Shown here: in pieces, positions 29,710 through 60,660 of the stretch
Layout of the letters: every line of letters starts with the position of its first letter
Position numbering within the stretch: position 1 is the first letter of the stretch
Assembly: GCA_030390025.1 (NCBI GenBank)
Contig: CM059432.1
Coordinates: 32,118,001-32,182,000 of the forward strand
DNA from: Squalus acanthias
Taxonomy: Eukaryota
DNA: 64,000 bases
Reading direction: 5' to 3'
The notes under the pieces: model-generated
The model's input: only the letters and a program-made list of their open reading frames with translations
The model's database searches: none
What the model was told of the DNA's origin: nothing
Position numbers and translations under genes: made by a program

Positions 29710-32700
29710 AAGCACACTTTAATTGTGCGGCAGGCATCGCATGAGCTAAACATGGTCATAGGTTGTCCTCCTTTACTATAATCTAATCTCAAGAGTTCAG
29801 ATGGTGGCTATAAACCAATTGAACTTCGCTCTCAAGGTTTATGAATTGCTCTCGCACTCTGCCTCCAGTTTCTATTGCTGTGTAATTACAACCAAGAAGC
29901 TATTGTTCTCAGTAAATAAGAAACCCTGGACGTTCCTGCCTGAGTTACTACCTTTTGTCTCTCTGAGGCTTCCATTGGTCTGTGATATAATGACAGTAAT
30001 AAACTCCTTCTTTATTGGTTAGCTCGTTCCTCTGTGAGGTGCATGTTAGGGAGAGGAGGTAACACTGGCTAATTCATAATACATTACCCTTTAAATTTAC
30101 GCCATGCAAAGGTTAACATGCAACTGCATTCATATTAAACTCCTTACTCTGCTATTTTAACAGTCATTAATCAATTTATTTTAAGTTTCTACTGAAACAG
30201 TGGACCAGGTAATTAATAATCTTTGTACAGCTGAATTTCAAGAGCAGTGTTTTTATCCAATTTTAAATTGTACAGTCACAGGGAAGCAGTGAGTCTGATC
30301 AAATAAAAAAAACATGTAATTAAAAAGTAGAACAGGAAGAAAAACTCGTACCTCCTATTTGAACGGAGACCTGGGCTGGCTCCTTTGCAATTTACCCTAG
30401 GATTGATCCTTTTGCCCAGTTCGCACTGGAAAGCCAACACAAACCAATTTCTGGGCCACTGTAATTCTATGAGGTGATGAAAGCGTTGATGAGGGTTTTC
30501 CAAAGATGGCGGAGGTGATGTCGTGTTGGCAGTTGATGTTCCAGCAGTGGGAAGTGAGTGGTCATGGCAATGGAGTAGATGTGGGGCTGAATGCTCAGCT
30601 CAGGGTTGAACAGGACCCAAAGGTTCTGAGTTCAGACTGAGCAAACAGTCAGATGGAGATGGAATCAGAAAAATTTCTGGTGGGATCCGAAAAGGATAGC
30701 TTCAGTCTCACCATTGTTGAGCTGAAGAAATTTCTGGTGTCAGACAGATAGTCGGATCGCACGGTTACGCAATGCGGGGTGCTGGTAGGGAAATAGAGCA
30801 GAGAGTCAGTGGATACACATAAAAGTGCTTTGCCAAGGGATAGCATATGAAGGGATGGAGAGATGACGCCTTGACGGCACGCAAGAGGTGACCATGAAAA
30901 CAAGGGCGGAGAAGCTACTGGAGGAAATGAACTGACAGCATTGGGAAAGGTTGCAGTGGAACTAAGAGCAGCTCCTGAGATCAGAGAATGGCACAGAGCC
31001 AGTGGAGGAGGGTGGAATGGTCAACTGTATCGATGGTCACTAAGAGATTGAGAAAGACAATCATCAATTCATAATTCAACCCCACCTACCCGCCATCTAA
31101 GCGCATCCCTCAATCCCTTCTCTCTCCAAAATGCACTGATTTGTCTCTTGAATCCACTAATGCTGAACAATTCAACAGTTTGCCCTGATAACTTGTTTCA
31201 CAACCCTATTTCCATTTAAGCTGAAAATGTTTCATCCAACATGCCCTCTTGCTCCTAACTGTCAAATTTTTAACTTGTGTCGCCCCAGCATGTGAGCCCT
31301 TCCGCTATCGCTGAACTGCATTCCCTGTAAACTCTTTTGCTTTCTGTAATGGGTTGGGGGCAGAGGGGGTGGGGGGGGGCAGGAACTGTGGGACAAGACA
31401 CTTTGTATGTGGTGATGTTCAGCAAACTTCCCCCACCCCACCTGCTCTGGGAAAAGTCTGATCACTGCAGGAATAATTATAACCTCACTGCATTCCCCTT
31501 TGATAGTGTAATGTTAACTTAATGATTCAATCTGACTTGCTGCATTCCTTTCACTATAAAGAAAGCCTTAAATGGACTGCACTCCACATTATCACACTTC
31601 ACTTTCTTGAAAAAAATCCTTGACAAGGGCAACAGATTTAAAAAATGCCCTTTCTGACCGGACAGTGATCAGGACAATCCCCACCTTCAGTGAAGACGTG
31701 AATCTTTGAGTATTAATGTTGTGACTGGCTACTTTCTTACTGAAATACATGTAGCTGTTCTTAATGATTTTAAACACAAGAGGGCGGTAGAGTAACAGGT
31801 TGCTCAGATTTGTATCACAGAGTCTATATAGATATATATATATTGCACAATTCCTTCTGAAAGGCAGCATTGTATTAAATATAGCACCTCATCATATCTC
31901 CAAGCATCTCAAAGCAGTTTGCGCACGATGAATTACTTGGAGTCACTATTATGCCAGCAAACGTCGAGGGGAAGCAGTCTGTAGGGGGCAAATTTGAGAG
32001 CAACACAAGAACAACTGCGCACGAGCAAAATTGCGCAGATGCAATCACTTAAAAATCACCATTGTTATTTTAATTATCAGACAGCGCAGGCAAACAGTGT
32101 GAAAGTGCTGTGATGTGAATGCACTATCACACGATGTTAAAGGAACGTTGAAGGGAAAAAGGAAAGGAATTACCTAGTATTTACAGCACAGAAACAGGCC
32201 ATTTGGCCCAACAGGTCCATGCATTTATATTTTTTTACATATTCATTTATGGGATGTGGGCGTCACTGGCAAGACCAGCATTTATTGCCCATCCCTAATT
32301 GCCCTTGAGAAGGTGGTGGTGAGCCGCCTTCTTGAACCGCTGCAGTCCGTGTGGTGATGGTACTCCCACAGTGCTGTTAGGGAGGGAGTTCCAGGATTTT
32401 GACCCAGCGATGATGAAGGATCGGCGATATATTTCCAAGTGAGGATGGTGTGTGACTTGGAGGGGAACTTGGAGGTGATGGTGTTCCCATGCGCCTGCTG
32501 CCCTTGATCCTTCTAGGTGGTAGAGGTCGCAGGTTTGGGAGGTGCTGGTGGATGGGGTGCCAATCAAGCAGGCTGCTTTGTCCTAGATGGAGTCATGCTT
32601 CTTGAGTGTTGTTGGAGCTGCACTCATCCAGGAAAATGGAGAGTATTCCATCACACTCCTGTCTTGTGACTTGTAGATGGTAGAAAGGCTTTGGGGAGCC

Positions 32701-33418
32701 AGGAGGTGAGACACTTGCCACAGAATACCCAGCCTCTGACCTGCTCTTGTTGCCACAGTATTTATGTGGCTGGTCCAGTTAAGTTTCTGATCAATGGTGA
32801 CCCCCCCCCAGGATGTTGATGGTGGGGGATTCGGCGATGGTAATGCTGTTGAATGTCAAGGGGAGGTGGTTAGACTCTCACTTGTTGGAGATAGTCATTG
32901 CCTGGCACTTGTGTGGCACGAATGTTACTTGCCACTTATCAGCCCAAGCCTGAACATCGTCCAGGTCTTGCTGCATGCGGGCATGGACTGCTTCATTATC
33001 TGAGGAGTTGCGCATGGAACTGAACACTGTGCAATCATCAGCGAACAACCCCAGTGCTAACCTTATGATGGAGGAAAGGTCATTGATGAAGCAGCTGAAG
33101 TTGGTTGGGCCTAGGACACTGCCCTGAGGAACTCCTGCAGCAATGTCCTGGGGCTGAGATGATTGACCTTCAACAACCATAACCATCTTCCTTTGTGCGA
33201 GGTATGACTCCAGCCAGTGGAGAGTTTTCCCCCTGATTCCCATTGACTTCAGTTTTACTAGCGCTCCTTGATGCCACACATGGTCAAATGCTGCCTTGAT
33301 GTCAAGGGCAGTCACTCTCACCTCACCTCTGGAATTCAGCTCTTTTGTCCATGCTTGGACCAAGGCTGTAATGAGGTCTGGAGCCGAGTGGTCCTGGTGG
33401 AACTCAAACTGAGCATCA

Positions 33419-35086
33419 GTGAGCAAGACTGTCACTGACCTCATCTCCTCTGGAGATCTTCCCCCCACGGCCGCCAACCTCATAGTTCCCCAACCCCGCA
33501 CAGCCCGCTTCTACCTCCTTCCCAAGATCCACAAACAGGACTGCCCCGGTAGACCCATCGTTTCAGCCTGTTCTTGCCCCACGGAACTTATCTCTTCCTA
33601 TCTCGACTCTATTTTTTCTCCCCTTGTCCAGTCTCTTCCCACCTACATCCGCGACTCTTCCGATGCCCTCCGCCATTTTAACAGTTTCCAGTTTCCCGGC
33701 CCCAACCGTCTCCTCTTCACTATGGACGTACAATCCCTCTACACCTCCATTCCCCACCAGGATGGCCTGAGGGCGCTCCGCTTCTTCCTTGAACAGAGGC
33801 CCAACCAGTCCCCATCCACCACCACCCTCCTCCGCCTGGCTGAACTTGTTCTCACATTGAACAACTTCTCCTTTGACTCTACCCATTTCCTCCAAATTAA
33901 AGGTGTTGCTATGGGTACCCACATGGGTCCTAGCTATGCCTGCCTTTTCGTGGGATATGTGGAACACTCTTTGTTCCAGTCCTACTCGGGTCCCCTCCCT
34001 CACCTCTTTTTCCGGTACATTGATGACTGTATCGGTGCCGTCTCCTGCTCTCGCCCTGAACTAGAACATTTCATTCACTATGCTTCCAATTTCCACCCTT
34101 CCCTCACCTTCACATGGTCCATCTCCGACTCTTCCCTTCCCTTCCTCGACTTCTCCATCTCCATCTCTGGGGATAGGTTATTGACTAACATTCACTACAA
34201 GCCCACCGACTCCCACAGCTACCTGGACTACACTTCCTCCCACCCCGCCTCCTGTAAGGACTCTATTCCATTCTCCCAGTTTCTCCATCTCCGCCGCATC
34301 TGCTCTGATGATGCCACCTTCCATACCAGTGCTTCCGACATGTCTTCCTTTTTCCTCAACCGAGGATTCCCCTCTACCGTGGTCGACACGGCCCTCGACC
34401 GTGTCCGTTCTATCTCCCGCACATCTGCCCTCACCCCTGCCCCTCCCTCCCGGAACCACGATAGGGTTCCCCTTGTCCTCACCTTTCACCCCACCAGCCT
34501 CCACATTCAACGGATCATCCTCCGCCATTTCCGCCACCTCCAGCGTGATCCCACCACCAAACACATCTTCCCCTCACCTCCCCTTTCAGCATTCCGCAGG
34601 GACCGCTCCCTCCGCGACACCCTAGTCCACTCCTCTACCACCCCCAGCACCCCTTCCCCTTCGCCCGGCACCTTCCCGTGCACGCGCAGGAGATGCAACA
34701 CATGCCCTTATACCTCCCCTCTTCCCACTGTCCAGGGCCCCAAACACCCCTTCCAGGTGAAACAGCGATTTACTTGTACTTCCTGCAATTTAGTATACTG
34801 TATTCGCTGCTCACGATGTGGACTCCTCTACATTGGGGAGACCAAACGCAGATTGGGTGACCGCTTTGCGGAACACCTCCGTTCAGTCCGTAAGGGGGAC
34901 CCCGAGCTCCCGGTGGCCTGTCACTTTAATTCACCGCTTCACTCCCACTCTGACCTCACCGTCCTCGGCCTATTACACTGTTCCACGGAAGCTCAGCGTA
35001 AGCTCGAGGAACAGCACCTCATCTTTCGTTTAGGCACGCTACAGCCCTCTGGACTCAATATCGAGTTCAACAATTTTAGATCATAA
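33419..35086 (+). CDS. Penelope reverse transcriptase + GIY-YIG endonuclease; uninterrupted 555-codon frame lacking its native start
   Basis: FYLLPKIHK, GRPIVS, MDVQSLYTSI, GVAMG, FRYIDD, YKPTD; Cys-rich linker CTRRRCNTC; NLVYCIRC..CGLLYIGET..RFAEH..GLN. Confidence 0.95.
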   Translation: MSKTVTDLISSGDLPPTAANLIVPQPRTARFYLLPKIHKQDCPGRPIVSACSCPTELISSYLDSIFSPLVQSLPTYIRDSSDALRHFNSFQFPGPNRLLFTMDVQSLYTSIPHQDGLRALRFFLEQRPNQSPSTTTLLRLAELVLTLNNFSFDSTHFLQIKGVAMGTHMGPSYACLFVGYVEHSLFQSYSGPLPHLFFRYIDDCIGAVSCSRPELEHFIHYASNFHPSLTFTWSISDSSLPFLDFSISISGDRLLTNIHYKPTDSHSYLDYTSSHPASCKDSIPFSQFLHLRRICSDDATFHTSASDMSSFFLNRGFPSTVVDTALDRVRSISRTSALTPAPPSRNHDRVPLVLTFHPTSLHIQRIILRHFRHLQRDPTTKHIFPSPPLSAFRRDRSLRDTLVHSSTTPSTPSPSPGTFPCTRRRCNTCPYTSPLPTVQGPKHPFQVKQRFTCTSCNLVYCIRCSRCGLLYIGETKRRLGDRFAEHLRSVRKGDPELPVACHFNSPLHSHSDLTVLGLLHCSTEAQRKLEEQHLIFRLGTLQPSGLNIEFNNFRS

Positions 35087-35462
35087 CCTCAGCTCCAATC
35101 ACATTTATATTTTATTTTATCCACCCTTTTATTTGTCCCCCCCACCTTTTTTTTCCTCCTAGAAGCTGGCAGCTGTCCTTCATTCTGCCAGTGGATTTCA
35201 CACTTCATTCAGCCTTAATCTGTCACATTAACACCACCTCTAGCCTTGCATATCTCTTAATGTCTCTTAATGTCTCTTCATCTCCTCCTTTGTTCCTTTA
35301 TCCCCTCCCCCTTTTCCCAGCTTTACCCTGGCCTTAAATCTATTTGATTTCCAGCTCTTCCCAGTTCTGATGAAAGGTCATCGACCTGAAACGTCAACTC
35401 TCTTTCTCTCTCCACGGATGCTGCCTGGCCTGCTGAGTTTTTCCAGCGTTTTCTGTTGTTAT
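33426..35462 (+). mobile_element. Penelope-like retroelement, family 1 (Neptune-type), 5' truncated
   Basis: 11-bp TSD ATCAGTGAGCA (33415-33425 / 35463-35473), RT + GIY-YIG ORF, and 3' UTR with a hammerhead. Confidence 0.95.
35363..35399 (+). ncRNA. Minimal type-I hammerhead ribozyme in the Penelope 3' UTR
   Basis: AGTT-CTGATGA-a-AGGTC-atc-GACCT-GAAA-C-GTC-AACT: full catalytic core, stem I AGTT/AACT, stem II AGGTC/GACCT, palindromic ACGT stem III. Predicted cut after 35395. Confidence 0.85.
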
Positions 35463-37204
35463 ATCAGTGAGCAGGTTATTGGTGAGTAAGTGCCACTTGA
35501 TAGCACTGTCGATGACACCTTCCATCACTTTGCTGATGATTGAGAGTAGACTGATGGAGCGGTAATTGGCCGGATTGGATTTGTCCTGCATTTTGTGGAC
35601 AGGACATACCTGGGCAGTTTTCCACATTGTCAGATAGATGCCAGTGTTGCAGCTGTACTGGAACAGCTTGGCTAGAGGTGCGGCTAGTTCTGGAGCACAA
35701 GTCTTCAGCACGATAGCTGGGATGTTGTCGGGGCCCATAGCCTTTGCTGTATCCAGTGCGCTCAGCCGTTTCTTGATAACACGTGGAGTGAATCGAATTG
35801 GCTGAAGACTGGCTTCTGTGATGGTGGGGACCTCAGGAGGAGGCCGATATGAATCATCCACTCGGCACTTCTGGCTGAAGATGGTTGCAAACGCTTCAGC
35901 CTTGTCTCTTGCACTCATGTGCTGGGCTCCACCATCATTGAGGATGGGGATATTCATGGAGCCTCCTCCTCCCGTTAGTTGTTACATTGTTCGCCACCAT
36001 TCGCAACTGGATGTGGCAGGACTGCACAGCTATGATCTGATCTGTTGATTGTGGGATCGCTTAGCCCTGTCTATAGCATGCTGCTTCCGCTGTTTAGCGT
36101 GCATGCAGTCCTGTGTAGCGCTTTTCACAACCTCAGGATGTTCCAAAGCGTATTTACAGCCAATGAAGTATGCTTTTGAAGTGTTGTCACTGCTGTAATG
36201 TAGGATCACACTGTACATGGAAAACCAGCCCTGACAGGTTTAGGCCCTGGAAATCGATGGGCTGCAATCCTGGCAGTTGGAGCAATGGAGTTGGCAGGGT
36301 TAATGGGAGACCACCTGATTAGCATGCTTCCAGAAAACTGGCATCTGCCCATCATCAGGGGTGGGGAGGGGAACTGGTCAGGCTGGCTGAACCCTCAATG
36401 AAATTTGTGGCCTTAGCATTTAGTGCAAAGCAGGCTCAACTTGTGCAGTTTTAACCCCCAGCCTGACTCCAGAATGAAGTGGAGACTCCCTCCTCCAGGG
36501 AGTCTCTCTCCGCTTCGCCCCTGCATCAGGTTGTGTGCTGCCTCTGGATTCAGGACGCATTATGCACTTTAATTATTGCCTCAGTGCTATATAAATGCAA
36601 GTTGCTGTGGTACTCTTCTAGTGTAAAGAGGGTTACACTATAGAATGGTGCATAATATTAAGGAGGGAAATGTGAACAATGCAGGTTATTCGGAGACTAT
36701 TACAGCGTTCAGAATTAACCGTGTTCCGCAAGAGTCTTTGAATTTAACTCATATTTATACGACTCTGCATGAAGGCAATGGAACAAAGTTGTTCTCATTT
36801 TTGCTTAGCGTAACCTAAAACAGGAAGTGATGGCTTAAAGACTGTGGGGAATTAGTGAGGTCACTGGAACTCTAAAAGCCACATTCTCAGACCCCGAGAA
36901 TTGATTGCTCTGCTCTTTCCGTGATTGCCTACGCACAGGGGAGCCACACCTTATTGTTCTTCATCACTGAAGCCTCTGTCAGTGAAACTGACACCATGTC
37001 GTTCTCTCCAAGCTGTTACCTGCTGTAACAGTGGAATTCACGTGGAAATGTAGGAACAATTTGTTTCCTATTCCCATTTTCTCCGCTCCTCCTCCTCCTC
37101 CTTCTCCCCATCGTCCCAAACACACTGACTCATCCCGGGGTCTGGTCCCACTTGCTCTGGCAATCCCTTTGCTACCTCCCCTCTGAAAACACATCTCCAG
37201 CAAC

Positions 37205-37482
37205 AAAAATTGTATTTATATAGCGCCTTTAACATAGAAAAGCGTCCCAAGGCACTTCACAGTAGCGTAATCAGACAAAAATGGACACTGAGCCAAAAAA
37301 GGAGATATTAAGGAAGAGTGATTGAAAGCTTGGTCAAAGAGGTGGATATTTAGGAGGGTCTTAAAGAAAGAGAGAGAGAGGTGGGGCAGTATAGAGAGGG
37401 AATTCCAGAGCATGGGGCTTAGGTGGTTGAAGGCACTGCCTCAGATGGTATGGCGTAGAGACGGGAGGATGCAGAAGAAGTC
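37205..37482 (-). mobile_element. L2-type LINE 3' end
   Basis: aaagcttggtcaaagaggtgg and tatttatatagcgcc motifs, shared with 57465-57970. Confidence 0.75.
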
Positions 37483-39188
37483 AGATTAAAGCTCTGCAGT
37501 CCTGCCACATCCAGTCATGAATGGTGGTGGACAATTAAACAACTAACGGGAGGAGTAGGCTCCATGAATATCCCCATCCTCAATGACGATGGAACCCTGC
37601 ATGTGAGTGCAAAAGACAAGGCTGAATCATTCACAACCATCTTCAGCCAGAAGTTCCAAGTGGATGATTCATCTCCACCTCCTCCTGAGGTCCTCAACAT
37701 CACAGAAGCCAGTCTTCAACCAATTCGATTCACTCCACGTGATATCAAGAAACGGCTGAGCGCACTGGATACAGCAAAAGCTATGGGCCCCGACAACATC
37801 CCGGCAGTCGTGCTGAAGACTTGTGCTGCATAACTAGCCGCGCCTCTAGCCAAGCTGTTCCAGTACAGCTACAACACTGGCATGTACCTGACATTGTGGA
37901 AAATTGCCCAGGTATGTCCTGTCCACAAAAAGCAGGACAAATCCAATCCAGTCAATTACCACCCCATCAGTCTACTCTCAATCATCAGCAAAGTGATGGA
38001 AGGTGTCATCGACAGTGCTATCAAGCGGTGAGGTGAGAGTGCCTGCTCTTGACATCAAGGCAGCATTTGACCGAGTGTGGCATCAAGGAGCCCGAGTAAA
38101 ATGTAAGTCAATGGGAATCAGGGGGAAACCTCTCCATTGGCTGGAGTCATATCTATCACAAAGGAAGATGGTTGTCGTTGTTGGAGGCCAATCATCTCAT
38201 CTCCAGGACATCGCTGCAGGAGTTTCTCAGGGCAGTGTCCTAGGCCTAACCATCTTCAGCTGCTTCATCATTGACCTTCCCTCCATCAGAAGGTCAGAAG
38301 TGGGGATGTTCGCTGATGATTTCACAGTGTTCAGTTCCATTCACAACTCCTCAGATAATAAAACAGTCTGTGGCGGCATGCAGCAAGACCTGGATGACAT
38401 TCAGGCTTGGGCTGAGAAGTGGTAAGTAACATTCGTGCCACACAAGTGCCAGGCAATGACCATCTCCAACAAGAGTGAGTCTAACCACTGCCCCTTGACA
38501 TTCAACAGCATTACCATTGCCGAATCCCCCACCATATCCTGGGGGTCACCAATGATCAGAAACGTACCTGGACCAGCCACATAAATACTGTGGCTACAAG
38601 AGCAGGTCAGAGGCTGGGTATTCTGCAGTGAGTGTCTCACCTCCTGACTCCCCAAAGCCTTTCCACCATCTACAAGGCACAAGTCAGGAGTGTGATGGAC
38701 TAATCTCCACTTGCCTGGATGAGTGCAGCTCCAACATCACTCAACAAAGCTCGACACCATCCAGGACAAAGCCACCACCTTAAACATTCACTCCCTCCAC
38801 CACAGATGCAACGTGGCTCCAGTGTATACCATCTACAAGATGCACTGCAGCAACTCGCCAAGGCTTCTTTGACAGCACCTCCCAAAGGCGCGACCTCTAC
38901 CACCTAGAAGGACAAGGACAGCAGGCGCATGGGAACACCACCACCTCCAAGTTCCCCACCAAGTCACACACCATCCTGACTTGGAAATATTTCACCGATC
39001 CTTCATCGTCGCTGGGTCAAAGTCCTGGAACTCCCTCTCTAACAGCACTGTGGGAGTACCTTCACCACACGGACTGCAGCGATTCAAGAAGGCGGCTTAC
39101 CACCACCTTCTCAAGGGCAATTAGGGATGGGGAATTAATGCTGGCCTTGTCAGCGACGCCCACATCCCATGGATGAATTAAAAAAAAG
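37483..39188 (+). mobile_element. 5'-truncated CR1/L2-group LINE, same family as 32232-36118, with an internal deletion near 38027
   Basis: Same ORF2 motifs, but SAIKR is joined directly to GEVRV. Intact 3' UTR with A-rich tail. Confidence 0.92.
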
Positions 39189-53250: not shown

Positions 53251-53576
53251 TGTTAGCCCAATGAATGTTTTACAAGGCATCTCAACCCAACCTCAAAGAG
53301 CGCTGCTCAGAATTCTGAACAACGTGTCCTCATGAAACTGGCCTAAAAATTACACTGTTTGAAGAAAATTAAAAGTCTATTACTTCATTTAAGTAATTAA
53401 ATAGAAGTGATACGCTGTACGTAATAGAGGAAAAAACTGCAAGGAATGAATGAACACTTCCCAGAATAGATATTTACCAGATCAACTGCTGTCAGTTTTC
53501 CATTTCCAGCAATCCTTGTGGTTCCTCTCAATTTAGTACCAATCTTGTGCTGTTGACCTATGCCCCCTAGAAACTA

Positions 53577-54270
53577 TGATGCGGAGATGCCGGTGTTGGA
53601 CTGGGGTGGACAAAAGTGAGAAGTCGCACAACACCAGGTTATAGTCCAACAGTTTTATTTGAAATCACAAGCTTTTGGAGCGGCTGCTCCTTCGTCAGGT
53701 GAAGTGAAGGAATACAAATCGACAAAGCATATATAGACAGAGAACAATGCAATGTCTTAGAGACACACGACAACGCAAAATCATCGAGCAGAAACTGATA
53801 GCCAAGTTCCGCACTCATGAGGACGGCCTCAACCGGGATCTTGGGTTCATGTCACGGTACATGACGTAGAGTCATCCAGACTCGAGTCGTCGTTGGCTTG
53901 TTCAGATGTGATTTCCAGTAAAAATAAGTAAAAATTTTAAAGTTTATCGTTTTCCATACCGACTGCAGCTTTTGACACATTAGACCCCCTGTAACCCCAC
54001 CTCATTGTCTCAGTTGTATCTTGCTATGTCTTTGATGTGGTGCCTTCCTGTCTGACCTGATTGTTTATCTGCCGAGGTGTGACAAAAGGCAGTCAGGAGG
54101 ATTGAATGTAGTCGTCTGCCATTGTCCGTTACACATGCATTGTTCTCTATCTATATATGCTTTGTCGATTTGTATTCCTTTACTTCACCTGACGAAGGAG
54201 CAGCCGCTCCAAAAGCTTGTGATTTCAAATAAAACTGTTGGACTATAACCTGGTGTTGTGCGACTTCTCA
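53577..54270. mobile_element. Penelope family-2 insertion with inverted pseudo-LTR arms
   Basis: 12-bp TSD CCCTAGAAACTA (53565-53576 / 54271-54282), arms 53617-53751 and 54136-54270, and GIY-YIG C-terminus RDTRQRKIIEQKLIAKFRTHEDGLNRDLGF. Confidence 0.9.
54185..54222 (+). ncRNA. Hammerhead motif with G12>A substitution (mirror copy on - strand at 53665-53702)
   Basis: TCAC-CTGACGA-a-GGAGC-agcc-GCTCC-AAAA-G-CTT-GTGA. Confidence 0.7.
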
Positions 54271-54506: not shown

Positions 54507-56499
54507 TTAGTGCAAAGTTTATGCTGTTGACCTATGTCCCCTTAGAAAGTGGACTGAGATACCCAAGGTCATTTTATATAAGATTCTTGCAACTAGAAGA
54601 GAGAGAGCAACTCATACAATCATTTTGAGATGGATTTGGACCCAGGTTACAAAGGTGATAACATGCTTACCTACTGTGCCATGCAATGGCTAAAAGTACC
54701 TTATCTGGATACATTCATTCAATGTATAGAAAGTCATTCAATGTGTACAATAATGGTGCTTTGTTAGAAATTCTAGATTTTTCGTGTCCCTCTCCTGAAG
54801 GGGGAGGGAATAAAAAGTTCCAGAATTTCAGATTATGGGTGTGAGGTGGAAAATAAATCCCTAAAGGAAAAAGTACAAGTGGTTAGATATGGTTGGCTCT
54901 TAATGCCCTCATAGCAACTAGGGATGGGCAATCTGCTGCCTTGACAGTGTCGCCCACTTCCCAAGAACAAATAATTTAAAAATAAATTTTAAAAGGGATG
55001 CAATGAGGAATGCTTGTTCATTCATCAAACCTGCTCCTTTCTACAGACCACAATGAGCAGACTTGATGGGCTGCATGGCCTTTTTTATTATTTTTTATGT
55101 TATTAATATACTTCCCTTTACAGAGTTCGTCCCTCCCCTGAAATACAACACACAAGCCTTTGTTTTTGGAAACAGCTTTTCACACTTGACTTCCACTAGC
55201 AGAGGAAGAGAATCCATTTACTTATCAGCTACCCGGTCTAATTGCCAGTTTAAGGGATTATGTTTCCGCAGGGATTGAGAAAGGGCCACTTAAACGTGAG
55301 CTGGCGCAGCACCAGCAGGATTAGGAAAGAATCGTCTCCAGCAGTTCATTGCTGCCTCCCGCAAATAGCACCTCAAACTAGCCGACCTTTCTACCTCAGC
55401 GGCGAAAGGTACAAAGCGTAGCATGCTTCCTACATATATATATATATATTAAAAGAATGGATAAAACAAGCATCCGAAAGTTAAACACAGTCCAGCCAGG
55501 GAATCAATCACAGGGAAGTGGCTCGTACAAAGCTAATCAGAATGGGCACTGTTGTGCAAAGCTGGCACGGGGAGAGACAGCTGTTGCCGGACAACGCAGT
55601 TGGCTTAAGAACGGGGAAAAAAGAGAGGGGAATAAATCAAAACGACTTCCAGGCTTGCATTATTTGTCATCAATGTATGAAATAGTAGCCATCTGGAAAC
55701 AATAAAAAAAAGTATAAGGAGGTTCATTGTCAATTCACGAGTGATTGAAGAGACAAGTCATTTATTCATCCGCACAGGACGGATTTAAAATGTATTAAAA
55801 GTCCAGCTACCGCCGCCTTCCCTTTTACATGTCCCAGCTTCTGAACGCACATTAACCCTTTAAAGGAGCAGCATGCACGTTATTTTTTGCTTAAAATTAA
55901 TTATGAGTGCGCAGTTTGCCCTTGTCTCCCTAAATGACATTGCAATGATTTTTTGGGGGAATAAATTCATTGTCAGCTGGTTAGAGAATGCACTCCCTAG
56001 TGTGGTACCGAGCTATACAGATGCTAGGTTCGATCCAAGGCCTGTCCTCGGTCAGATCAGCGGTAGAGTCGCCATCACTGGCTTAGGCACCTCAAGGATA
56101 ATCAGAATAGAATCAAAAAAAGTAAACGGAGGTTCATTGTCAACTCACTAGTGATTGAGAGACAAGTCACTTATTCATCCGCACAGGACGGATTTAAAAT
56201 ATATTAAAAGTCCAGCTATCGCACATCTAATTATACAGCACAGAAAGAGGCCATTCGGCCCATCGTGCCTGTGCTGGCTCTTTGAAAGAGTTTTCCAATT
56301 AGTCGCACTCCCCTGCAATTTCCCCATAGCCCCGCAATTTTTTCCTTTTCAAGTGTATATCCAATTCCCTTTTAAAATGTTACTATTGAATCTGCTTCCA
56401 CCATCCTTTCATGATGCGGAGATGCCGGCGTTGGACTGGGGTGGACAAAAATGAGAAGTCGCACAACACCAGGTTATAGTCCAACAGATTTATTTAAAA

Positions 56500-56538
56500 T
56501 TACAAGCTTTCGGAGCTATCGCCCCCTTCGTCAGGTAA
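56500..56538 (-). ncRNA. Minimal hammerhead ribozyme (left arm)
   Basis: TTAC-CTGACGA-agGGGGC-gata-GCTCC-GAAA-G-CTT-GTAA with intact core. Confidence 0.78.
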
Positions 56539-57203
56539 AGTTACAATGAGTGAATCTACAAGAGTTCACAGAATATAAACACAGAAACTGCAGAGATACA
56601 ATCTTTCAGGGAAGGTGTCCTTACATCAAAGACACACCAAGAGCACAGCCAAGACAATGAGATGTGTCCCAGGGGGTCCAACGTGTCAAATCCTGCTGTC
56701 TGCAGTGTTTTTTTTGGGGGGTTTGTTTTTTGGGTTTGTTTTTTAAAAACTGGAAAGACAGACAACGATGTCAAGTCACGTTCTGTAGCATGACATGAAC
56801 CCGATATCCCTATTGAGGCCATCCTCATGAGTGCGGAACTTGGCCAAGGCGGCCTTCGAGACACACGACAACGCAAAATCATCGAGCAGAAACTGATAGC
56901 CAAGTTCCGCACTCATGAGGATGGCCTCAATAGGGATATCGGGTTCATGTCACGCTACAGAACGTGACTTGACATCATTGTCTGTCTTTCCAGTTTTTAA
57001 AAAACAAACCCAAAAAACAAACCGGAAAAAAAAACACTGCAGACAGCAGGATTTGACATGTTGGACCCCCTGGGACACATCTCATTGTCTTGGCTGTGCT
57101 CTTGGTGTGTCTTTGATGTAAGGACACCTTCCCTGAAAGATTGTATCTCTGCAGTTTCTGTGTTTATATTCTGTGAACTCTTGTAGATTCACTCATTGTA
57201 ACT

Positions 57204-57241
57204 TTACCTGACGAAGGGGCAATAGCTCTGAAAGCTTGTAA
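57204..57241 (+). ncRNA. Minimal hammerhead ribozyme (right arm)
   Basis: TTAC-CTGACGA-aGGGGC-aata-GCTCT-GAAA-G-CTT-GTAA with intact core. Confidence 0.78.
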
Positions 57242-57464
57242 TTTTAAATAAATCTGTTGGACTATAACCTGGTGTTGTGCGACTTCTCATTTTTGACCAT
57301 CCTTTCAGGCAGTGCATTCCAGATCATCATAACTCGCTGCATAAAAAAAGCCTCTCCTCATCTTCCCCCGGTTCTTTTGCCAATTATCTTAAATCTGTGT
57401 CCTCTGGTTACCGACCCACCTGCCAGTAGAAACAGTTTCTCCTTATTTACTCTACTACAACAAC

Positions 57465-58874: not shown

Positions 58875-60660
58875 TAATAACAACTTGCACTTATATAGCA
58901 CCTCTAACATAGAAAAATGTCCCAAGGCGCTTCAAGGAGGCATAATTAGATAAACATAGAGACCGAATCAAAGAAGGATCTATTAGGAGGGCTGACCAAA
59001 AGCTTGGTCAAAGAGGTGGATTTTAAGGAGGGTCTTTACGGAGGAGAGGGAGGTGTAGAGGCAGAGGGGTTCAGGGATGGTATTACAATGCATAGGGTCT
59101 AGACTGCTGAAGGCACGGCCGCTAATGAAGAGAAACGAGGGAGTGGCGAAGAGGCCAGAGTCAGAGGAACATAGAGTTCTGGGGTGGGGGGGGGGGAGTT
59201 TTGTAGCACTGGAGGAGGTTACAGAGATAGGGAAGGACAAGGCCATGAAGGGATTTCAACACAAGGATGAAAATTTTAAATTGGAGAGGTTAGGGTGACT
59301 GGGAGGCAATGGATGAGCGGGACCTGATAGGCTACGGGCAGCAGGGTTTTTGCCGAGCTGAGGTTTACGTAGCGTAGAGGATGGGTGGCCAGCTGGGAGA
59401 GCATTGGAATAGTCAGGTCTGGAAGTGATTAAGGCATGGATGAGAGTTTCATCATGTTTAGGGTTTGACCTCTTTGACCAAGTTTTTGGCCAGCCCTCCT
59501 AATATCTCCTTCTTTCTTTGTATGAGATGTAAAATGATTCCTTTATAAGCTGTTTAGGATGGTTCAGTTTGGAGATATGGGAAGTGTGGAAAAAATGTGA
59601 CGGCATATTCCTGGGTTCAATCAAATCTACTATCTCTGTGATTTTACCTATATTTTATTTGGTGGAGAGTTGAATTAACCTGCTTTACATTGCACCTTTA
59701 ATGTAACAAAATATACCAAGGTTCTTCATAGTTCATCGTTAGATGTGAACAGGAGTAGGAGGGGAATTAGAGGAGGTGTCCATAGGCACTGACAAAGAGA
59801 TAGGTTATAAGGAGGTTCTTGAAGGTGGGGAGAGATTTAGCATTGTGGAGGGATTTAGGGAGAGAATTCCAGTGATGGGGCAAGATTGCTGAAGGTACTG
59901 TAGAGTTGGGTGAGCAATCAATATAGAACTGGAGGAAAGGTCTTCGACCTGAAAAGTTAGCTCTGTTTCTCTCTCCACGGATGCTGCCTGGCCTGCTGAG
60001 TTTTTCCAGCGTTTTCTGTTGTTATTTCGGATTTCCAGCATCCGCAGTATTTTGCTATCGTAGAACTGGAGGACGTTGCAGAGGTCAAGAGGAGCTAGGC
60101 CGTGGAATACCTTGTAGATGAGGACAAATAGTTAGAAGTCAGCACATGAACGTGAGCAAGGATAGGGTAATAGGTAAGTGAGACTAAGTGTGGCGTCAGA
60201 TGCAGGCATCAGAGCTTTGGATGAGGTGGAGTTCATTTCAAGTGGAGTTTGGAGGCCAGTGAGGAGAGCTTTGGAGAAATTAAGCCTAGTGTGGACAAAA
60301 GCATGAATGAGGTCTTTGGAGGCAGTGAGTGTGAGGTAGGAACAGAAATGGGTGAAGTTTCGAAGTTGGAAGAAGGTAGTCTCGGTGAGGACTGGATCTG
60401 GGGTGTGAAGCAATGTTCAAGGGCAAGAATGGGCATCGTTAAGTTGTGATTGATCAGTATCCAGGATGGGAGATGGAATCTGAGGCTCGAGTCCAGAGTT
60501 TCTGGATGAGGGCCGAAAAGGATGGCTTTGATCTTACCAGTCTTAAGCTGCTGAAAATTCCACTTCACCCACGAACGTGATGTCATACAGACTGGCGGAC
60601 AGCATAGTGATTGACATGGAATCAAGGATGGTGGTGGAGAGGTAAAGCTGGGCATCGACA
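58875..60660 (-). mobile_element. L2-type LINE fragments (two or more copies)
   Basis: LLKIHLFDQAF and LIHAFVHTRLNF motifs. Confidence 0.7.
59937..60060 (+). mobile_element. Penelope family-1 3' fragment beginning inside the hammerhead and including the tail
   Basis: Aligns with 35374-35462 and extends ~35 nt further. 13-bp TSD TAGAACTGGAGGA (59924-59936 / 60061-60073). Confidence 0.88.

Follow-up and report, generated by a model that had tools for sequence, protein, structure and literature searches.

Based on the 5' ends of the genomic copies of two families of Penelope-like elements (PLEs) in Squalus acanthias, we propose that a hammerhead motif likely stands at the very start of a capped element RNA and that the RNAs that were copied back into the genome were mostly uncut. 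The copy at the centre of this analysis lies in a 64,000-nt stretch of DNA (the window). It is an intact minimal type-I hammerhead of the kind known from PLEs, for which self-cleavage is predicted, and it is carried by a young element. The motif itself is ordinary, as its class, its place in the element, the palindrome, the dimer model and the covariation were already reported by Cervera and De la Pena in 2014 (PMC4209133). The motif and its carrier comprise the following features:

33413 to 35086, plus strand: open frame of 557 amino acids, the C-terminal part of a PLE protein (Pfam RVT_1 and GIY-YIG; comparison with the full-length unit).
33415 to 33425, plus strand: left copy of an 11-bp target-site duplication, of which 2 nt are common with the element's 5' end.
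33424 to 35462, plus strand: 5'-truncated Penelope-like element of 2,039 nt (comparison with the full-length unit L091).
35087 to 35462, plus strand: 3' UTR or pseudo-LTR, consisting of an upstream part, the hammerhead and 67 nt from the predicted cut to the short 3' end.
35363 to 35399, plus strand: minimal type-I hammerhead motif of family 1, GUC/AUG subfamily (sequence, descriptor and family matches genome-wide).
35463 to 35473, plus strand: right-hand copy of the same 11-bp duplication.

The motif is built from a stem I of 4 bp (35363-35366 with 35396-35399, AGTT/AACT), the core CUGAUGA (35367-35373), a stem II of 5 bp with a 3-nt loop (35375-35379 with 35383-35387), GAAA (35388-35391) and a stem III that is a loopless palindrome, ACGU (35391-35394). 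C17 is found at 35395, with U-H at 35394-35395 and the predicted cut at 35395/35396. When the coordinates were re-derived, the core and stems of family 1 agreed with the original prediction, as did the loopless palindromic stem III of both families (ACGU in family 1 and AGCU in family 2), and an unpaired A (A35374) between A9 and stem II, which had been missed, was added. Pair 10.1-11.1 is A-U in this copy compared with the usual G-C of the minimal hammerheads (min-HHRs). A descriptor that demanded the core, U-H, a paired 15.2-16.2, a stem I of at least 3 bp and a stem II of at least 4 bp found three sites in the window, the one at 35363 and two of family 2, compared with none in each of 300 dinucleotide shuffles. 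The bare core pattern was found seven times in the window against a shuffle mean of 6.98, which is chance level; the signal is therefore carried by the stems. The search of Rfam returned no hammerhead: there were no matches in the whole window at the gathering score, and the four matches in 35200-35600 at an E-value of up to 10 were weak and unrelated. The curated, canonical hammerhead models of Rfam do not appear to cover the minimal form. The traits of the min-HHR descriptor (intact core, stems, loopless palindrome and a site in the pseudo-LTR) are all present at 35363, and H17 is not G.

The carrier is 99.7% identical (six mismatches) to the full-length genomic unit L091 and sits inside an older RT-bearing repeat of the minus strand (RVT_1 E 1.8e-28, 32881-33510 minus). 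This interrupted repeat (32232-33333 and 35493-36040) has an inverted second copy with about 90% identity at 37481-39187. The 557-aa frame, the opening few codons of which are host DNA, encodes an RT with YIDD, a CX4CxxC linker and a GIY-YIG endonuclease (EN); the Pfam matches (E 6.6e-6 for RVT_1 and 6e-4 for GIY-YIG) both score slightly below the curated cut-offs in this truncated protein. The hammerhead starts 277 nt downstream of its stop. L091, of family 1, has a hammerhead in both pseudo-LTRs, a hammerhead-to-hammerhead period of 3,199 bp and an open frame of 1,004 aa, and L093, of family 2, also has a hammerhead in both, with a period of 3,046 bp and a frame of 919 aa. Over 881 aligned columns, the proteins of the two families have an identity of 31.7%, and the CX4CxxC linker between RT and EN occurs in both. 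The features of EN+ PLEs were found, i.e., a single ORF with the DKG motif, the RT and, C-terminally, GIY-YIG, together with partial-tandem pseudo-LTRs, inverted 5'-truncated arms and a one-sided tail. This aligns with the Neptune and Nematis EN+ PLEs, in which a single ORF runs from the RT through a CX2-5CxxC linker to GIY-YIG, and in which partial tandems, inverted 5'-truncated arms and a 30-40-bp tail at one end were described (PMC8557442). In that work, a CX2-5CxxC linker between RT and EN marks the Neptune and Nematis clades. Both families thus appear to be Neptune/Nematis-type PLEs, a placement made by the linker alone. The Zn-finger linker makes them Penelope-like but places them outside the Penelope/Poseidon clade, and the label of two Penelope families that they had been given was dropped.

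A non-LTR retrozyme, i.e., a non-coding tandem repeat with a hammerhead in each unit, was also considered and rejected because a single motif lies behind an RT-EN frame. The animal non-LTR retrozymes, which were reported in one chondrichthyan, likewise have type-I hammerheads that act as dimers and are related to those of the PLE pseudo-LTRs, but they are non-coding tandem repeats, whereas the motif that is described here sits within a coding PLE and on scattered stubs (bioRxiv 10.64898/2026.07.22.740005). Because the truncated element has no partner in cis, a dimer partner for the motif at 35363 would be needed in trans.

The window holds five further copies:

53665 to 53702, minus strand: inverted arm of the insertion at 54185, with the same G12 to A change, core broken.
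54185 to 54222, plus strand: family-2 hammerhead with the TCAC/GTGA and GGAGC/GCTCC stems, G12 to A, core broken.
about 56500 to 56538, minus strand: family-2 hammerhead with an intact core and one extra G before stem II, on the inverted arm of the insertion at about 56409-57302.
57204 to 57241, plus strand: family-2 hammerhead with an intact core and two G-U pairs in stem II, on the forward arm of the same inverted insertion.
59926 to 59962, plus strand: decayed family-1 hammerhead on a short stub, core broken, with 11 differences from the copy at 35363.

The two intact family-2 copies have a TTAC/GTAA stem I, with a GGGGC/GCTCT stem II in one and the extra G in the other, and no copy in the window unites GGAGC/GCTCC with an intact core. 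The family 2 of the original prediction was therefore a composite of two insertions, although paired stems and an intact core do occur together genome-wide (23,446 exact matches of the family-2 pattern, control 0). Both arms of the insertion at 53576-54270 share the G12 to A change, which means that the change is older than the insertion or arose during it. Both inverted insertions, 53576-54270 and 56409-57302, are flanked by short direct repeats and have a long tail on a single arm each. In family 2, an AATAAA (or AAATAAAT) follows the cut site by about 10 nt and precedes the short 3' end by 35-40 nt (57246-57253 in the window); it is a possible poly(A) signal, and none is found in family 1 on that strand.

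Across the 3.71 Gb of the genome that were searched, the family-1 pattern had 26,617 exact matches (control 0), and a general core pattern that did not demand pairing had 145,096 matches compared with 1,973 for the control. Among the first 100 core matches listed, 97 belonged to the two families when counted by eye. A third large hammerhead family was sought and rejected: a pattern that excluded both families gave 3,422 matches against a control of 1,627, and those that were listed were mostly decayed copies of families 1 and 2 or chance matches. The A/T-palindrome pattern had 87 matches genome-wide compared with 245 for the control. Nonetheless, a small old set with an AUAU palindrome, decayed and with family-1-like flanks, was observed (L391, L398 and L406), which is a third palindrome type in the genome. 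Other observations included a 14-bp tandem repeat at G000:C1:60955085-60955125, whose unit holds both halves of the hammerhead core, and another repeat, ending in GGCC, that is inserted 4-6 nt past the family-1 cut site at two or more independent loci (L004, L100 and L167). The copy number in Squalus acanthias is far above the approximately 4,000 coelacanth motifs and 9,000 Xenopus motifs that Cervera and De la Pena found with a descriptor of their own, from which our search patterns differ (PMC4209133). The min-HHRs of that study share with those described here the type-I core, the loopless palindromic 15.2-16.2, the unpaired base after A9 and the short helix I, as well as the presence in both pseudo-LTRs, the many solo and opposite-strand copies and the covarying families. 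Palindromes of the CG, GC and AU types are all found in its figure S3, while its 40-species alignment holds no cartilaginous fish.

The pairing was analysed in copies that had been chosen by their downstream sequence, 97 of family 1 (75 parsed) and 100 of family 2 (86 parsed). In family 2, stem I pair 3 was C-G in 53 of the 86 copies and T-A in 24, and pair 10.1-11.1 was G-C in all 86. In family 1, this pair was A-U in 41 of 75 copies and G-U in 33, and rarer subfamilies had G-C (546 matches) or, at 10.2-11.2, an A-U for G-C double change (10 matches). Most family-1 copies thus differ from the min-HHRs of PMC4209133, in which G10.1-C11.1 is listed as a trait outside the descriptor and G-U exceptions are shown. 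The unpaired A after A9 was present in 74/75 and 85/86 copies of families 1 and 2, respectively, by a parse pattern that expects an A but allows mismatches. Because MAFFT placed the families one column out of register, pairs were counted after a structure-based parsing. Among 16 representatives (14 of the 15 motif types that were seen at three or more loci and two window copies), 158 of 160 stem cells were paired compared with a shuffle mean of 111.9, and none of 5,000 shuffles reached 158; since the representatives are related and were in part retrieved with patterns in which the stems are fixed, this reflects a handful of events and is not a probability. The claim of covariation is upheld in that pairing is kept across the subfamilies, but the comparison of the two families is a single evolutionary contrast whose weight had been overstated. 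Selection was also tested by a comparison of recurrent with rare pair variants, which gave no significant difference (p 0.64 and 0.20) and is confounded by truncated copies. The core was intact in 47 of the 75 parsed copies of family 1 and 77 of the 86 of family 2, which indicates that many genomic copies are decaying. H17 was U in 83, C in 15 and G in 2 of the first 100 family-1 matches listed (by eye), and among the parsed copies it was U in 70, C in 4 and G in 1 for family 1 and U in 74 and C in 12 for family 2, so that G was found in one of 161. A cut after GUC, as originally proposed for family 1, fits the subfamily of the copy at 35363 but not most family-1 copies, which have GUU.

Evidence on the role of the motif came from the points at which genomic copies begin. 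The 97 family-1 copies had 5' ends downstream of the cut (2), called at the cut (4), inside the motif (17), at its 5' edge (22; defined as -2 to +12 from C3), in the next 28 nt upstream (6) or further up (46); for the 100 family-2 copies, the corresponding numbers were 2, 1, 11, 26, 8 and 52. On inspection, one of the four family-1 ends called at the cut site was retained; the others were an internal deletion (L138) and two secondary insertions (L100 and L167). Over both families (197 copies), this leaves about two copies whose start coincides with the cut site, compared with 48 that start at the motif's 5' edge. The per-base rate of ends at the edge exceeded that of the next 28 nt upstream 4.8-fold in family 1 (p 1.5e-4) and 4.2-fold in family 2 (p 9e-5). 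The ends of family 1 peak 3-4 nt before the core, and in family 2 seven ends fall on one base, 7 nt before the core (p about 0.02 among 15 edge positions). The ends inside the motif (17/97 and 11/100) point to some drop-off or trimming. Two back-to-back hammerheads 2 nt apart were observed at L096 and L097 (G000:C1 near 10,883,535 and 12,650,765), where the fold-back coincides exactly with the 5' strand of stem I; this fits a cDNA that ended there and primed itself.

An additional base at these ends resembles a copied cap, as an untemplated G is accepted, for LINE-1 and SVA, as the mark of a cap that was copied (PMC4859970). In family 2, a non-native purine precedes the presumed +1 A in 4,434 copies genome-wide compared with 1,102 one base higher, and in the first 100 matches listed, which were scored by eye, its G:A ratio was 82:18 compared with 55:45 one base higher (Fisher p 6e-5). 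All 30 of the family-2 loci that were inspected were true junctions, 24 of them with G, and the extra G joined many different points of the arm. Twenty-two of these 24 are fold-backs, whose two arms are not independent events, and in many of them the inverted arm itself continues with a G, i.e., possible microhomology; the extra G is clearly untemplated, being absent from both arm and target, at some junctions only (e.g., L310, L315, L322, L326 and L335). The cap-G signal is weaker in family 1, in which the base before the start was G in 38, A in 30 and T in 32 of the 100 matches listed (by eye) and G in 13 of 26 true junctions (p 0.005 against 0.25). At and upstream of these ends, two promoter-like features were found in the window copy:

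35334 to 35339, plus strand: TATA-like box TTAAAT, 29 nt before the putative start A35363, with a presumed promoter function.
35361 to 35367, plus strand: Initiator-like YYANWYY site, in which the putative start A35363 is base 1 of stem I (sequence and genomic 5' ends).

The presumed start bases of both families match the Initiator consensus; at 35361-35367, the same bases also read as a splice acceptor with a pyrimidine tract and CAG. A TATA-like box was found at -29 to -32 in 39 of the 51 family-1 copies that match the start-site pattern and at -30 to -33 in 33 of 43 in family 2, as scored with a loose A/T pattern that has no control and with truncated copies among the misses. The ends at the edge, the TATA-like box about 30 nt upstream and the extra G together suggest that the ribozyme likely begins a capped transcript. 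In the GUC subfamily, the core contains an AUG (A6 U7 G8; L091:3487-3496, window 35367-35376) that is in frame with the 1,004-aa frame and would sit 7 nt from the putative cap. Most subfamilies have ACG in its place, with further in-frame Met codons downstream.

The mechanism that we favour, and hold to be somewhat better than an even bet, is that the hammerhead starts a capped RNA as a predicted slow cutter that depends on a dimer or a protein, and that it was mostly uncut in those RNAs that became copies. RNA polymerase II would start about 30 nt past the TATA-like box. In family 1 this start would coincide with base 1 of stem I, and in the main subfamilies of family 2 it would lie 7 nt ahead of the core; the hammerhead would form the first 33-41 nt of the capped element RNA. 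The RT of the element would prime 65-105 nt downstream of the start, in the tail region, as in the Anolis element, and run off the cap, which may have produced the many stubs of 100-140 nt and the fold-back pairs, often with an extra G. Two motifs of the same family could meet via the ACGU or AGCU palindrome, e.g., the 5' and 3' copies of a read-through RNA, and cleavage of the dimer would strip off the capped leader and shorten the 3' end; with the 5' copy cut, the RNA would lose its cap along with 33 nt in family 1 or 36-41 nt in family 2. For every copy that holds both the motif and the tail, the copied RNA spanned the scissile bond without a break, having either stayed uncut or been ligated again. 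The catalytic bases are conserved, which argues for cleavage being of importance at some step, most simply in conditional trimming or turnover. The role of the motif is most likely the conditional processing or turnover of the element RNA rather than making the ends of the transposing template. Cleaved RNAs may be poor templates, and the genomic record is therefore silent on the fraction of RNA that is cut. Of 24 sequencing runs listed, the one with raw reads had none on the stretch; three contig sets, of what is guessed to be RNA, contain it and were not counted as evidence of expression, since contigs show neither ends nor strand.

The folding predictions count against this mechanism in that the active fold was not favoured: ViennaRNA gave -5.9 kcal/mol for the active monomer compared with -9.5 for an alternative, and -9.9 for a double hammerhead compared with -23.7 for the best dimer. 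The predicted minimum-energy fold has a 5-bp helix (35368-35372 with 35392-35396) that pairs the core with the cleavage triplet. Among the GUC matches listed, 14 of 15 had U7 and one had C7; C7 with GUC would make this alternative helix fully Watson-Crick, although the U7 bias may reflect phylogeny only. The predicted duplex energies of the palindromes were -1.7 kcal/mol for ACGU with itself, -2.5 for AGCU with itself and +0.4 for ACGU with AGCU; each palindrome would pair with itself and not with the other, and dimers would thus be family-specific.

Similar observations were made for the Poseidon element PAc of Anolis by Frangieh et al. (2024; PMC11167929), whose hammerhead cuts only with protein and is not needed for insertion in vitro, whose RT primes internally and for which no RNA-seq reads end at the cut site. 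These findings agree with the genomic record that is described here. The two systems also share a hammerhead at the junction of pseudo-LTR and ORF, an ORF start that overlaps the motif, two 3' ends about 35 nt apart and an uncut RNA as the dominant template. PAc differs in that it belongs to the Poseidon clade, which has no Zn-finger linker, and in that its evidence is biochemical with the transcription start unmapped, whereas ours is the genomic record. The main text of PMC4209133 has no passage on transcription starts or caps, and our searches of the open-access literature yielded no report of hammerheads in shark PLEs or of capped transcripts that start at a PLE hammerhead.

A stronger form of the mechanism, which we regard as possible although on balance doubtful, is that the motif is an off-switch: cleavage that is triggered by a dimer or a protein would decap the TATA-driven mRNA in a family-specific manner, and only uncut, capped RNA would be retrotransposed. 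If this were true, cleavage would also remove the in-frame AUG in one subfamily, the pseudo-LTR would have the layout of a retroviral U3-R-U5 in which the ribozyme takes the place of R, and, with approximately 140,000 cores, this genome would carry a larger ribozyme load than any that we found reported.

Rather less probable is the obligate processing that was proposed by both the original prediction and the 2014 paper, in which the two hammerheads of a read-through RNA, 5' and 3', would form a dimer in cis and cut to yield a unit-length RNA that may circularise and template long and tandem copies. It would account for the identical motifs in both pseudo-LTRs of full units and for the core and stems that are kept in families with 31.7% protein identity; moreover, dimer and trimer constructs of the Schistosoma min-HHR do cleave, at a low but real level (PMC4209133). 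A ligated circle would rebuild the motif, which makes the copies that extend more than 40 nt past the core (46/97 and 52/100) compatible with it. However, starts at the cut site were found in about two of 197 copies, and the cap-like G of the short copies implies that at least the templates of these were linear, capped and uncut. In addition, core mutants had no effect on insertion of the Anolis element in vitro (PMC11167929), and the Naiad PLEs thrive with no hammerhead (PMC8557442). The function of the PLE hammerhead was called unclear in the latter work, which allowed parasites of the element as a possibility. Since copies rarely start at the cut and often at the 5' edge with a cap-like G, the idea that cleavage makes the template ends is weakened, although the proposed RNA-processing system retains the support of a motif that is kept in two such distant families.

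It is improbable, in our view, that the fold was kept as a structural signal, e.g., for protein binding, positioning of the RT or control of the start site or translation, with catalysis vestigial or incidental. The motif lies at the putative 5' end and adjoins the RT priming region, the active fold is not the predicted minimum, and GUU and CUU triplets, which are slower than GUC, predominate in these families. Furthermore, the protein-binding region spans the motif in the Anolis element, although the Anolis motif does cut, with a C3/G8 rescue (PMC11167929). The unpaired catalytic positions, H17 and the palindrome are also kept between the distant families, which would be needless for a mere binding site.

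The least probable reading is that the family-1 edge is an RT drop-off point, as the ends inside the motif would allow, or a splice acceptor as in the Penelope element of D. virilis, whose intron ends at helix I (PMC4209133): a pyrimidine tract and CAG precede the motif in all of the family-1 subfamilies seen, but the short copies have no common upstream exon and are flanked by host DNA or their own inverted arm, the acceptor position itself (+2) accounts for none of the 97 ends, which are most frequent at +3/+4, the 15 of 16 joints listed in three contig sets (of what is guessed to be RNA, with rare forms dropped) include no GT-AG joint into 35365, and family 2, which has no AG there, still has a one-base peak with an extra G. 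The missing common exon, acceptor ends and spliced joint thus disfavour the splice reading. The D. virilis element counts against the TATA-driven start that we propose: according to Schostak et al. (2008; PMC2377424), its promoter is internal and TATA-less, and an intron separates the start from the hammerhead, about 125 nt downstream (PMC2377424; PMC4209133 table S1). The dogfish families resemble it in having a promoter within the pseudo-LTR and a functional boundary at the 5' strand of helix I, with the difference that this boundary is the 3' end of an intron in D. virilis and a presumed TATA-driven start here (PMC2377424).

The capped start of an RNA that is mostly copied uncut, as read from the genomic 5' ends, is a modest new lead for these elements. 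Tens of thousands of insertions appear to record where the template RNA began, and they place it at the 5' edge of the ribozyme, with a cap-like G, and not at the cut site. If this start is confirmed, models in which the template's 5' end is made by cleavage would be disfavoured for these families, and the short stubs and fold-back pairs would gain a simple origin. A regulatory role of the hammerhead would then be directly testable in two families whose dimer palindromes would not pair with each other.
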